Under the pieces are notes generated by a model. It had not been told where the DNA came from. It made no database searches and saw nothing but the letters and a program-made list of their open reading frames with translations. A stretch of DNA of 61,600 nt from the sequence record NC_048193.1; one strand, written 5' to 3'. This DNA is from Escherichia phage PTXU04. A program made the translations under genes and the position numbers. This document shows, in pieces, positions 2,683-61,574 of this stretch. The stretch's first letter is position 1; each line of letters opens with the position of its first letter.

Positions 2683-3519
2683 ATGACCGTTACCGTCAAG
2701 CTCATCACCGAGCAAACCACTAACAAACTCGTCGACTCTGTAAACGCGGCTCAGGCTATGGGCTGGTTCCCGGTGTGCGGCGTGGTCTGCTTCAACGCTC
2801 GCTACACTCAGCTAATGACACTGGATACCGACGCTACCGAGGTTCCCGCCTGTAACTATTTTATCGTGGACGCTGCCGACAGCGTATCGTTCACCCAGCG
2901 CGTCAATCAATTACTCGACATTAATCCGGGCGCTGTGTGCCTTTCACCCGTGCAGTATTCACATGCTCGTTACATTCAGGCTTACGGCGATAACGTTGAT
3001 GACAACCGTCCGGTAAGTGCTGTGTTTCGTGCATCCTTCACTACTACAGGTCTTGCGCTGAATCAGTACGTTACCACCGACAACACCCCGCAGGTTGTGG
3101 TGTTCAATGCTCAGGCATTACCTAACGCCGCTCTAGGTACGCTCGACAATGCCACAGGTATATTCACAGCGGCGCGACGCATTGTCGGTACTCTGGCTAT
3201 AACCTGTCAGGTGCGTCGAACTACTGGTGGCGCTGCCGCTGTAACGTGGGGTTTTCAGGTGGAGACATCACCGGACGGCGTAACGTGGACACCTACAGCC
3301 GGGAGCGCACGTTATATCAACCTTCGCGGTGCAGGTGATAACAACGTTTTGCAGGTCATCGGGCTGACATCAGCAGTTGACATCCCGTCCGGCACCCGCC
3401 TCCGTATTACTCAGATGACCGATACATCATCGGCAAACGTTGGTCTGGCAGCACTCCCGGCTATGTTGGGTGGCGCTACGGCTGCGGGTCTGGTGTTCTC
3501 GTTAATTACCACGCTGTGA
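2683..3519 (+). CDS. hypothetical protein
   Basis: ORF-track frame 2647-3519; start moved to in-frame ATG at 2683 preceded by GGAGGG RBS. Followed by GGGGC-TTCG-GCCCC hairpin at 3527-3540. Confidence 0.5.
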   Translation: MTVTVKLITEQTTNKLVDSVNAAQAMGWFPVCGVVCFNARYTQLMTLDTDATEVPACNYFIVDAADSVSFTQRVNQLLDINPGAVCLSPVQYSHARYIQAYGDNVDDNRPVSAVFRASFTTTGLALNQYVTTDNTPQVVVFNAQALPNAALGTLDNATGIFTAARRIVGTLAITCQVRRTTGGAAAVTWGFQVETSPDGVTWTPTAGSARYINLRGAGDNNVLQVIGLTSAVDIPSGTRLRITQMTDTSSANVGLAALPAMLGGATAAGLVFSLITTL

Positions 3520-57105: not shown

Positions 57106-57421
57106 CGGCTGATCCCCAGGCGCGATCTATCAGTCCTTGCAGCGCTCCCAGTTGTGTAGCGTGGTACCCTGCATCGCCCGGATCGCGGTCAACGTAGGCC
57201 CAGGCGTGGCCCTCAGTAGTCCGGCGCACCTTGCCGAACGCTACGTTGCTGGCATCAATGAGGGTATAGGTTACGGTATGTTTACCCTCGCGCACCATGC
57301 GCCAGCCTTTAGGAATGTGTAACTGTTGCCCGTAATACTCAAAGATTGAATAGTTGCCGTCGTCGTCAATCTGTGCGAGCAGGTCTACCAGGGCGGCGCG
57401 GATCTCTGCAATAGTTTTCAT
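57083..57421 (-). CDS. hypothetical protein (PKGW motif)
   Basis: 112-aa ORF; shares MKT start and a PKGW segment with the adjacent 119-aa ORF. Confidence 0.45.
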   Translation of the reverse strand: MKTIAEIRAALVDLLAQIDDDGNYSIFEYYGQQLHIPKGWRMVREGKHTVTYTLIDASNVAFGKVRRTTEGHAWAYVDRDPGDAGYHATQLGALQGLIDRAWGSADAASQPA

Positions 57422-57777
57422 TTGTTGGCCTCACGGTTAAGCCATTCGATGGCCTCTTTTTGAGTTTTCACAGTGGTTTTATATTTACCGTCCCACCAGA
57501 TCACATGATTGCCTTCAATATTCCGGTATACATAGGCACGTCTGACTCCGCGCTGGTCGCTCAGAATAATGATGTTGTTGCTGTCGTGGTTGATGGCGAT
57601 ACCCCAGCCTTTAGGCAGGTTTACCGGTACGCCCAGGAAATGCGGTTGTTCCTCCTTTGGTTGCAGGCTGGCAATCAGCACGTCTAAAGCCTCGATTAAC
57701 TCATAAGCCGGGGCCGTCTTCGGGATAATGCAGGCATAATCATCCCGCAGGTTCTGGTAGTAGCTTAAAGTTTTCAT
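57418..57777 (-). CDS. hypothetical protein (PKGW motif)
   Basis: 119-aa ORF. Confidence 0.45.
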   Translation of the reverse strand: MKTLSYYQNLRDDYACIIPKTAPAYELIEALDVLIASLQPKEEQPHFLGVPVNLPKGWGIAINHDSNNIIILSDQRGVRRAYVYRNIEGNHVIWWDGKYKTTVKTQKEAIEWLNREANK

Positions 57778-58028
57778 TTGGTTAATCCCTCGATTGCCTC
57801 ACGGGCGTGGCGCTTTGCGTCGCCGTAAGCGTTGGGCGAATACTGCGACGTTTCATGACCAGCAAACCACGCGTTAACTAATAGCTCTTTGATTAGCTCA
57901 CTGTTGAGCAGGTCAAACGCGCCGTTAGTGTAAGGATGCGTGTAAGGATTGGCCTTGTTGCGCTGCGTCGGGTCGCTATCCTTATCAGTCATGTGGGCGT
58001 TGTTGATCCACTTCTCGAACTCTGTCAT
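57774..58028 (-). CDS. hypothetical protein
   Basis: 84-aa ORF; its ATG overlaps the TGA of the small ORF 58025-58201 (ATGA). Confidence 0.45.
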   Translation of the reverse strand: MTEFEKWINNAHMTDKDSDPTQRNKANPYTHPYTNGAFDLLNSELIKELLVNAWFAGHETSQYSPNAYGDAKRHAREAIEGLTK

Positions 58029-58201
58029 TTGAATTTACCCTCCAGTATTTTAGCGATGACCGCATCAATCCACATGTCACGCTGCGACGGCTCATAGGTG
58101 TGGCTGAGCACCTGGCCGATAGTAGCACCTGGGGCAAACGTGGTAATTAATATCACTGTATGCCCGATAAACTTTAATTTGATGTTACTGATTGTTTGCA
58201 T
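58025..58201 (-). CDS. small ORF, possible degenerate fourth copy of the tandem paralog family (tentative)
   Basis: Hand-translated 58-aa ORF (MQTISNIKLKFIGHTVILITTFAPGATIGQVLSHTYEPSQRDMWIDAVIAKILEGKFK) starting at the same conserved ATG (inside the KDHA codons) that starts each paralog; ends in ATGA overlap with the next gene. Confidence 0.3.
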   Translation of the reverse strand: MQTISNIKLKFIGHTVILITTFAPGATIGQVLSHTYEPSQRDMWIDAVIAKILEGKFK

Positions 58202-58475
58202 GGTCTTTTACCCACTTGATGCGCTCATGGTTAAGGTGCATGGTCGCGCCGTCAAACTCTATTTCGAATCGGTATTCACCGCCGAACGGGTAGATCGGAT
58301 CGAGTCCAGCCTCTTCCAGTTGCTTCTTAATATGCCAGCGCGGCAGGCAATACGGCGCTTGCGTGACTGACATACATAATCCAACGTGACGATAGAACGG
58401 CTGGCCTTCCGGCGCGCCTTTATCCAGCCAGGCGGCATAGTCGTTATAGAATTGCTGTAATAATTTATTTTGCAT
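58185..58475 (-). CDS. tandem paralog C (about 95-aa family, unknown function)
   Basis: MQNKLLQQFYNDYAAWLDKGAP ... AGLDPIYPFGG ... RIKWVKDHA; similar along its length to the two genes upstream. Confidence 0.55.
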   Translation of the reverse strand: MQNKLLQQFYNDYAAWLDKGAPEGQPFYRHVGLCMSVTQAPYCLPRWHIKKQLEEAGLDPIYPFGGEYRFEIEFDGATMHLNHERIKWVKDHANNQ

Positions 58476-58752
58476 GGTCTTTCACCCATTGAACGCGTAA
58501 AGGGTTGAGGTGCATAGCCCGATTCTCTAAATCTATATCGAACTGAGGCACGCCGCCGAACGGGTATAATGAATCGAGTCCGGCCTCCGCAAACTGTTTT
58601 TTAATTTCGTTAAGAGGTACGCGGTACGGTCGTTTCATTGCTTGCGAGCATAAACCCTCGCCGCGCGTAAATTGCTTATCGTCTTCCGGCGCGCCAGCAT
58701 CAAGCCAGGCCGCGTAGTCGTTATAGAATTGCTGTAAGTTTTTATTGTGCAT
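58465..58752 (-). CDS. tandem paralog B (about 95-aa family, unknown function)
   Basis: MHNKNLQQFYNDYAAWLDAGAP ... AGLDSLYPFGG ... RVQWVKDHAK; start ATG lies inside the WVKDHA codons of paralog A (11-nt overlap). Confidence 0.55.
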   Translation of the reverse strand: MHNKNLQQFYNDYAAWLDAGAPEDDKQFTRGEGLCSQAMKRPYRVPLNEIKKQFAEAGLDSLYPFGGVPQFDIDLENRAMHLNPLRVQWVKDHAK

Positions 58753-59029
58753 GGTCTTTTACCCACTTGATGCGTAAAGGGTTGATGTGATGGTCGCTAT
58801 TGAATGACTTAGTAAGATAATCCGCCTCACCGTCATTGAAAGGATACTGAAAATCAAGACCAGCCGCCTCGAACTGGCGACCCATCTCGATATAAGCGTC
58901 ACGGTCGCCGCCGAACTTCCCCAGGTTATGACATAACCCAGCGTCTCGATAAAACGGTTGTTTGTGTGGCGCGCCAGCGTCAAGCCACGCGGCGTATGCG
59001 TTATAGAATGCCTGTAATAATTTATTCAT
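58742..59029 (-). CDS. tandem paralog A (about 95-aa family, unknown function)
   Basis: MNKLLQAFYNAYAAWLDAGAP ... AGLDFQYPFNDG ... RIKWVKDHAQ. Confidence 0.55.
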   Translation of the reverse strand: MNKLLQAFYNAYAAWLDAGAPHKQPFYRDAGLCHNLGKFGGDRDAYIEMGRQFEAAGLDFQYPFNDGEADYLTKSFNSDHHINPLRIKWVKDHAQ

Positions 59030-59164
59030 TTCAATAAGTCCTCGATTGCTAAGTGGATGCCTACCAGCCGCGCCCGGTCACGCTGGGCTTTAATGCGGCT
59101 CACTACAGTGGCGAGGGACTCCCCGCCGTACAGGGTGATTTTAAACAGGGTGGTCACCCGGCTG

Positions 59165-59461
59165 TTATATTTTGCGCAAAGCACGTAAGGCTTCATTGTA
59201 GTATTCCGTCATTTCAATTTTCATGTGGTGGCTTACGCAATCCTCGTTGGCCCATACTAGCCAGTCGCTCGGCAATGCGCAGGCAATGAACTCCTGCCAG
59301 TAGTCATAATCGCGCTGGCTGAGCGTACCCATTGCCGCTATTTTGTTGCGCACATCGAAACCAGCGTTAAAGATTTGCTGACAGATAGCGGCCAGGGTGG
59401 GGCGCAGTGCCAGTTTGCGGAAGTAGCGCGCGTCTTCAGCGTCGATAATTTGATTGGTCAT
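59165..59461 (-). CDS. hypothetical protein
   Basis: 98-aa ORF; leader TTAACAGGAGATGCAATC-ATG with hairpin 59484-59499 upstream. Confidence 0.45.
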   Translation of the reverse strand: MTNQIIDAEDARYFRKLALRPTLAAICQQIFNAGFDVRNKIAAMGTLSQRDYDYWQEFIACALPSDWLVWANEDCVSHHMKIEMTEYYNEALRALRKI

Positions 59462-60357: not shown

Positions 60358-60540
60358 TTAATAGAAAGATACGTAGGTCGCAATCCCTTTGGCGTCATCG
60401 TTAGGCAGCGCCTTGATCGCCAGGTCGTAACCTGCTTCGACTTTAGCCTTAGCGCTGGCCTCGTTGTAACCCCACATAGTCAGAATGGTCACAACGTTTT
60501 CCTTATTTACTACTTTGAGCGCTTTAGTGATACGTGCCAT
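60358..60540 (-). CDS. hypothetical small protein
   Basis: 60-aa ORF; conserved leader GAAAGAGAGAAACAAA-ATG; predicted promoter at 60579-60607. Confidence 0.4.
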   Translation of the reverse strand: MARITKALKVVNKENVVTILTMWGYNEASAKAKVEAGYDLAIKALPNDDAKGIATYVSFY

Positions 60541-60578: not shown

Positions 60579-60607
60579 ACTATAAGTAGTGGCGTCCCTG
60601 CCGTCAA
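60579..60607 (-). promoter_or_regulatory. putative sigma70-like early promoter
   Basis: On the - strand: -35 TTGACG (60607-60602), 17-nt spacer containing CAGGGACG, -10 TATAGT (60584-60579). Confidence 0.45.
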
Positions 60608-61385: not shown

Positions 61386-61414
61386 ATTATACCTTTATCA
61401 CGATGATTAAGTAA
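61386..61414 (-). promoter_or_regulatory. putative early promoter for the first - strand gene
   Basis: On the - strand: perfect -10 TATAAT (61391-61386) about 34 nt upstream of ATG 61352; weak -35 (TTACTT, 61414-61409). Confidence 0.35.
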
Positions 61415-61415
61415 A

Positions 61416-61574
61416 ACATTACTAACTACCGAAAACCTACATAATCACTGATTAAGGCAGGTTTACATTTTCTTAAGAGATAACTTAATCTCACCTAGCG
61501 TGAAAATAAAAACTAGACTTAACCAATGGTTTTGTAGGTTTCCCGTAGTTAGTAATGTATTACTTAATCACTGA
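61416..61574. repeat. 26-bp imperfect inverted repeat (24/26) with associated 10-bp direct repeat
   Basis: Arm 1 ACATTACTAACTACCGAAAACCTACA (61416-61441); arm 2 is its reverse complement with 2 mismatches (61533-61558); each arm is followed by TAATCACTGA (61442-61451, 61565-61574); arms are 91 bp apart. Confidence 0.6.

Follow-up and report, generated by a model that had tools for sequence, protein, structure and literature searches.

Tandem arrays of small, diverged paralogs are known from the poly-immunity loci of polymorphic toxin systems, where occasional multi-domain fusion, gain and loss between close relatives, and discrete types of specificity, whose variable segments sit on a conserved scaffold, are also found. 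In phages, the anti-CRISPR (acr) gene clusters and the T4-like hyperplastic internal-protein (ip) locus consist of small, dispensable genes whose combination varies at an unchanging genomic position, and conserved bounding sequence permits their exchange. The present work concerns an array of three small genes, gp85, gp86 and gp87, in Escherichia phage PTXU04, a podovirus and the type phage of Xuquatrovirus. The window, i.e. the whole stretch of DNA that was analysed, is the complete genome of this phage (NC_048193; 61,600 bp as reported). The PTXU04 family shares all the above traits of poly-immunity loci, but the likeness is one of pattern only, since those loci lie on bacterial chromosomes and the PTXU04 family is found in virulent phages. 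The traits of the acr and ip loci are likewise shared. In contrast to them, the PTXU04 cassettes are all paralogs of one family, their exchange sites lie within coding gene ends and not in intergenic promoters or terminators, and inhibitory activity is not part of what they are known for. T4 AsiA and Acb2, which bind host factors or immune signals, are comparable at the protein level: all are about 90-95 amino acids (aa) long, helical, soluble, oligomeric or probably so, and encoded by early or accessory genes.

The locus belongs to a known class of variable phage accessory loci and its architecture is unsurprising to a specialist. The locus itself is not a discovery either, because its genes had been annotated before, as hypothetical, and their dispensability is known from a published screen. 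What is new here is that the three genes all belong, as paralogs, to a single very large phage-only family without known fold or function, that this family repeatedly forms tandem arrays and fusions, and that it behaves as a cassette system with about four conserved types in the PTXU04 clade.

Layout and age of the array

Eleven distinct loci were compared, namely those of PTXU04, of two isolates (Pondi and Bas95) and of eight metagenomic contigs (designated by L numbers), and their cassettes were typed by the variable core. The features of the PTXU04 locus are as follows, with lengths in aa or nucleotides (nt):

59026..59196, - strand: upstream flank PTXU04_00088 (gp88), 56 aa, ATGA-coupled to copy 1; found ahead of the array in most relatives
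58742..59029, - strand: copy 1, PTXU04_00087 (gp87), 95 aa, cassette type A; orthologs Pondi_00020 (88% aa identity) and in L010
58683..58789, - strand: junction repeat 1, 107 nt; copy 1 3' end, 11-nt overlap and copy 2 5' end
58465..58752, - strand: copy 2, PTXU04_00086 (gp86), 95 aa, cassette type B; ortholog Bas95_0085 (88% aa identity)
58406..58512, - strand: junction repeat 2, 107 nt; copy 2 3' end, overlap and copy 3 5' end; 85% identical to junction repeat 1
58185..58475, - strand: copy 3, PTXU04_00085 (gp85), 96 aa, cassette type C, with a 'HANNQ*' tail; orthologs in L008, L029 and L030
58197..58238, - strand: conserved 3'-end segment, third copy, 42 nt; identity to the first and second copies 76-86%
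58025..58201, - strand: PTXU04_00084 (gp84), 58 aa, unrelated small gene; its ATG lies within the KDHANNQ codons of the last cassette
57774..58028, - strand: downstream flank PTXU04_00083 (gp83), 84 aa, ATGA-coupled to gp84

An earlier note on this DNA, made from the letters alone, had described three tandem minus-strand paralogs whose family it did not recognise. The open reading frame (ORF) listing and the sequence agree with this layout at every position, and the paralogy was borne out, the gene being a small accessory one. The ATG of each downstream gene sits inside the GAC-CAT-GCA (D-H-A) codons of the preceding copy. The 11-nt overlaps with starts embedded in the KDHA codons, as the note had them, were recovered at both paralog junctions (58742-58752 for gp87/gp86 and 58465-58475 for gp86/gp85), and the gp85/gp84 overlap measures 17 nt (58185-58201). 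ATGA overlaps close both outer boundaries, at 58025-58028 for gp84/gp83, where the note had placed one, and at 59026-59029 for gp88/gp87. The four genes gp84 to gp87 are all 'hypothetical' in the annotation and 'unknown' in the HHpred annotation by the authors of the CRISPRi-ART study.

The three proteins share 52-59% pairwise aa identity. The most distant pair, gp87 and gp85, aligned by BLASTP with 51% identity over 93 aa (E = 2e-27) and a hidden Markov model (HMM) of the family matched each copy at E ~1e-40, so the similarity is well above chance level and not a matter of low complexity. The residues conserved among the copies form an aromatic and hydrophobic core together with specific polar positions. 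Synonymous sites between the paralogs are saturated (synonymous divergence, dS, of 1.3-1.9 or not computable). The copies are therefore ancient and do not stem from a recent amplification. Diversifying selection, which the note had proposed, was not supported. The ratio of nonsynonymous to synonymous divergence (dN/dS) was 0.22-0.28 between paralogs and, between orthologs, 0.11 for the type A pair (gp87 and Pondi_00020) and 0.14 for the type B pair (gp86 and Bas95_0085). The variable middle is itself under purifying selection in both ortholog pairs (0.09/0.49, ~0.18, for type A and 0.05/0.35, ~0.14, for type B), and no positive selection was detectable in any of these paralog or ortholog comparisons. 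gp85, gp86 and gp87 are an old set of distinct, individually maintained genes.

The 58-aa ORF that follows the array had been taken for a degenerate fourth copy. gp84 has no similarity to the family profile (hhalign probability 0.2%), which rules out a decayed family member. All relatives examined carry it as an intact gene with strong conservation. An intact 58-aa gp84 homologue, absent from the GenBank annotation, is also found in Pondi (L001, about 3315-3491).

Cassette exchange among relatives

The family occupies the same genomic position in all 11 loci and is always followed by gp84; in most of the loci the gene called immediately before it is a 56-aa gp88 homologue. The copy number, whose comparison the earlier note had recommended, does vary, with one copy in eight loci, two copies in two loci and three copies in PTXU04 only. 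All reading frames are intact. About four cassette types were distinguished, arranged as follows:

PTXU04: A-B-C
Pondi: D-A
L006: D'-A'
Bas95: B
L008, L029 and L030: C each
L010: A
L011 and L028: D each
L012: D'

The C-terminal tail tracks the position in the array and not the cassette type. The last copy ends in ...KDHANNQ* (…KDHANS* in L030), overlapping the gp84 start, and internal copies end in ...KDHAK* or ...KDHAQ*, overlapping the start of the next copy. This distribution of tails by position argues for recombination in the conserved junction repeats. The single copy of Bas95, Bas95_0085, combines a type B body with a C-like tail; at the nucleotide level its C-terminal segment is 92% identical to gp85 as against 76% to its ortholog gp86. 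The 107-nt junction repeats are 85% identical and the cores share only 33-61% nucleotide identity. Moreover, both gene ends have a lower dS than the middle, and the 22 nt preceding the gp86 ATG are identical to the 22 nt preceding the gp84 ATG. The comparison shows that cassettes are added, removed and shuffled by homologous recombination within conserved stretches of coding sequence.

Within the variable cores (~170 nt), two segments are hypervariable: V1, at about residues 35-47, and V2, at about residues 66-79. In the proposed mechanism, the junction repeats of ~107 nt between the cores would be the sites where recombination adds, removes or reorders cassettes, and V1 and V2 would be reassorted by recombination at the central AGLD..YPF segment, the relatives thereby coming to hold different subsets of the approximately four types. 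V1/V2 reassortment was observed in P0006, P0010 and L006_2: the family member P0006 has the V1 of P0010 and the V2 of type B, and L006_2, a copy in L006, has an A-like V1 and a different V2. The diversity takes the form of old, discrete cassette types subject to gain, loss and recombination. Both the architecture of the array and the way it evolves, as described here, are well supported.

Spread, fold and candidate functions of the family

The profile search suggested in the earlier note placed the three copies in phrog_2510 (E = 7.2e-26, 1.3e-21 and 1.2e-22), residues 1-94 of each copy matching profile positions 6-107 of 219. All three also match phrog_6418 and copy 1 additionally matches phrog_2176. 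The three PHROG families are labelled 'unknown function', so that membership names the family of gp85-87 and offers no functional annotation to transfer. The profile lengths of 219 and 231 are explained by the inclusion of two-domain fused members. An exhaustive profile search retrieved 1,840 clusters at 50% identity with E <=1e-3, 922 of them with E <=1e-10. By tblastn, the family was located at 441 places in 219 phage records, i.e. about two per genome, with eight places in Phapecoctavirus phiWec186; the hosts of these phages include Escherichia, Rhizobium, Delftia and Erwinia. A scan of IMG/VR with the family alignment gave 12 distant loci and a scan with gp84 gave no further relatives. The longest contigs carrying members are all <=155 kb. 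Among 72,556 plasmids a single one had a match, next to Phd/Doc toxin-antitoxin and S24 peptidase genes, and it looks like a phage-plasmid; a plasmid leading-region (anti-defence island) context was rejected on these grounds. The family is essentially phage-only.

Independent three-copy tandem arrays were found in two unrelated IMG/VR viral contigs (L021, 569-1778 and 3001-3495, and L024, 2244-3330), where the genes again overlap or abut. L021 also holds a more distant fourth copy that bears a long insertion. Natural fusions with very short linkers, confined to distant lineages, account for 18 of the 150 top representatives: 17 have two domains and one, gp339 of the Burkholderia jumbo phage BcepSaruman (P0031), has three. 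A further two-domain fusion, found separately, is gp04 of Rhizobium phage RHEph09 (L005, 1412-2092), which adjoins the single-domain gp03.

The predicted model of gp85 is a confident one and consists of five helices (predicted local distance difference test, pLDDT, 88.7; predicted template modelling score, pTM, 0.83), and the two-domain fusion P0014 was modelled as a compact unit (pLDDT 94.6, pTM 0.80). Among 125 diverse representatives at 30-59% identity to gp85, six positions are invariant (W16, C34, P63, F64, R85 and W88) and thirteen near-invariant, among them R29, E48, Q52, H80 and N82. The proteins gp85-87 are hydrophilic, with an isoelectric point (pI) of 6.16-6.26 and a net charge of -1 to -2. 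This pI sets them apart from DNA-mimic anti-restriction proteins of the Ocr, ArdA or Arn type (pI ~4 or less), a candidate that was rejected.

Database searches returned no described relative. Pfam had no match for the three copies and nothing for 10 longer or fused members, and the 125 representatives gave only single chance-level matches. NCBIfam gave a 13-bit chance match for the copies, PADLOC none, and profile searches against PDB sequences nothing. Source names in the cluster look-ups and profile searches were all 'hypothetical protein'. The structure-based search that the note had advised did return matches in BFVD, all of them uncharacterised phage proteins. As for immunity proteins, the three-copy arrays of PTXU04, L021 and L024 and the two- and three-domain fusions are of the kind seen among them; no toxin domain was found in the flanking genes scanned, the neighbours being small hypothetical proteins, and no Imm or SUKH-type homology was detected by Pfam, which includes the Imm families. 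In the literature, the PHROG identifiers of the family are unmentioned, tandem paralogs together with phage and anti-defense gave no match, and the papers on PTXU04 mention neither paralogs nor duplication.

In the dCas13d knock-down screen of the CRISPRi-ART study in E. coli BL21, gp84, gp85, gp86 and gp87 were all 'Not Fit' (scores -2.00, -1.99, -1.51 and -2.32, respectively), and gp83 was 'Semi-Fit' and gp92 'Fit'. This shows that gp84-gp87 are dispensable in BL21. The three proteins gp85-87 may be polymorphic early accessory binding modules aimed at variable host or defence factors. This reading is offered as a tentative possibility because the family is phage-only, is dispensable on the laboratory host and occupies a fixed locus with presence or absence of discrete types, and because selection within types is purifying and arrays and fusions are recurrent. 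Soluble, near-neutral proteins would be produced early and would not be needed on a permissive laboratory host. The target of each copy would be a host factor, with a variable component of defence or host control as the most plausible choice. A common activity would come from the conserved scaffold and pocket and the specificity of each type from V1 and V2, and three types in one phage might widen the range of hosts or factors dealt with. The domains probably function as dimers or pseudo-dimers. The joint proposal of ancient coupled paralogs, cassette dynamics and host-factor binding is plausible while falling short of probable. A bolder version appears doubtful, namely that the domain represents a new and widespread class of counter-defence or host-takeover proteins with an unseen five-helix fold, whose specificity is switched by cassette and V1/V2 exchange, PTXU04 carrying three specificities. 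A polymorphic, position-fixed, lab-dispensable and phage-restricted pattern is typical of genes directed at variable host factors, which makes the array a reasonable and cheaply testable anti-defence or host-takeover candidate. Since a knock-down system for PTXU04 and sensitive ECOR hosts exist, a functional test is practical.

Several points weigh against the binding-module interpretation. No defence-related or anti-defence structure or profile was matched in the searches. Redundancy among the three copies could lie behind the 'Not Fit' scores. Bas95 is described as very sensitive to restriction-modification systems despite its type B copy, which argues against a broad anti-restriction role. 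Early expression is based on gene order and consensus promoter matches, and the sigma70-like matches are no more frequent than in shuffled sequence, so that early timing is inferred. Finally, conserved polar residues (C34 and R85; R29, E48, Q52, H80 and N82) are many for a 95-aa protein and, going by the alignment, would suit an enzyme or a small-ligand pocket as well as a protein binder.

This last point leads to the main rival of the binding-module interpretation, a small enzyme or small-molecule binder, which is considered unlikely. The ligand or substrate of its predicted pocket, comprising Cys34 at a helix start, Arg85, Trp16 and Trp88, His80, Asn82, Glu48, Gln52 and Arg29, would be a metabolite or an immune signalling molecule, and the types would differ in ligand or regulation. 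The number of invariant and near-invariant positions, several of them polar and one an invariant cysteine, speaks for it, as does their conservation from Rhizobium phages to E. coli phages. Known nucleotide 'sponges' oligomerise, and the domain probably likewise oligomerises or pseudo-dimerises. However, 15 of the 125 members have Tyr or Phe instead of His80 and 29 have a substitution at His92, and a conserved pocket leaves the discrete V1/V2 types under purifying selection unexplained.

A single hetero-oligomer is a rather improbable alternative. The three genes would be subfunctionalised paralogs acting in one complex, with overlap coupling giving equal amounts of each, as the natural fusions with very short linkers, the compact two-domain model (pTM 0.80) and the translational coupling of the three genes might suggest. 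However, eight of the 11 related phages are single-copy, with any of the four types, and the composition of the arrays differs (A-B-C as against D-A). No particular partner thus seems to be required, which makes an obligate hetero-complex unlikely.

It is very improbable that the array is a neutral recombination scar whose cassettes persist only through repeat-promoted duplication and bring the phage no benefit: the lack of phenotype upon knock-down of each gene in BL21 and the junction repeats favouring unequal crossing-over would agree with it, but dN/dS stays at 0.11-0.28 over a long divergence, the frames are intact in all 11 relatives, and the family spans 1,840 clusters and occurs in phages whose hosts range from Rhizobium to E. 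coli.

The last alternative, one domain-repeat protein broken by sequencing or assembly errors, or decaying pseudogene copies, is effectively refuted. The note had named fused homologues as the finding that would point to it; two- and three-domain fusions do exist in distant phages but the PTXU04 locus is not a split gene, because each copy has its own start and separate conservation and because the design of stop plus overlap recurs in independent isolates and assemblies. The 11-nt stop/start overlap is identical at both junctions, and Pondi and the metagenomic contig L006 keep separate genes with the same overlap; the other eight relatives have a single free-standing copy, so that no fused ORF was found among the close relatives. 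Each copy begins with a Met and an N-terminal helix of its own, each evolves under purifying selection, and for each an ortholog was identified in a different phage. The RefSeq record used by an independent laboratory (CRISPRi-ART tables) has identical coordinates and protein sequences. Reading of the 11-nt overlaps revealed no slippery heptamer or prfB-like site for programmed frameshifting to a fused product.

Expression signals and neighbouring genes

From gp91 down to at least gp80, the genes are contiguous or overlapping on the - strand and the array would form part of one leftward accessory-gene block with translational coupling of its copies. The end codons W-V-K-D-H-A of each copy would provide a Shine-Dalgarno-like GGGU and the ATG for the next gene. 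Predicted anti-Shine-Dalgarno pairing before the internal starts (-3.7 to -5.8 kcal/mol) lies within the range of the neighbouring genes (-3.5 to -9.8) and, with the overlaps, fits translational coupling. The two best - strand sigma70-like matches (10/12) are in the two gaps upstream of the block, at 61415-61386 and 60607-60579. The second is the nearest candidate for the block of the array:

60579..60607, - strand: sigma70-like promoter, 10 of 12 positions, consensus match only; gap upstream of gp91

Homologues in Autographiviridae (T7-like) and N4-like phages fall within the first 1-6 kb of the genome records as deposited, e.g. RHEph09 959-2092, KP8 2114, Axy10 2875 and 3HA13 1215. The first kilobases of T7-like and N4-like genomes are the early region. 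Together, gene order, promoter matches and the position of these homologues suggest early timing for gp85-87.

No conserved partner gene was found beside the family across lineages. A homologue of gp82 (57418-57777) with 43% identity (E = 5e-23) is encoded immediately upstream of a family member on an unrelated 153-kb viral contig (L017, 976-1329); gp82 is the only non-family gene linked to the domain in more than one lineage, maybe by coincidence. Three relatives have, a few genes before the array, a 60-aa gene with Pfam PF24196 (DUF7421) (L008 1411-1593, L010 1721-1903 and L011 1494-1676) that, from size and position, may correspond to gp91 (60358-60540). gp83 matches phrog_20928 and phrog_33875 and was tentatively called a DNA-binding domain protein by the authors of the knock-down screen.

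Three overlapping terminator-like hairpin matches within the coding sequence of copy 1 (58854-58882, - strand) are probably due to chance because their T-runs are poor. The genome record has no terminal repeats. Upstream of gp92, a non-coding inverted repeat of 69 nt, 83% complementary, spans 61404-61570 (arms 61404-61472 and 61502-61570) and overlaps the best sigma70-like match, at 61415-61386; its role may be that of a divergent regulatory region or of an origin.

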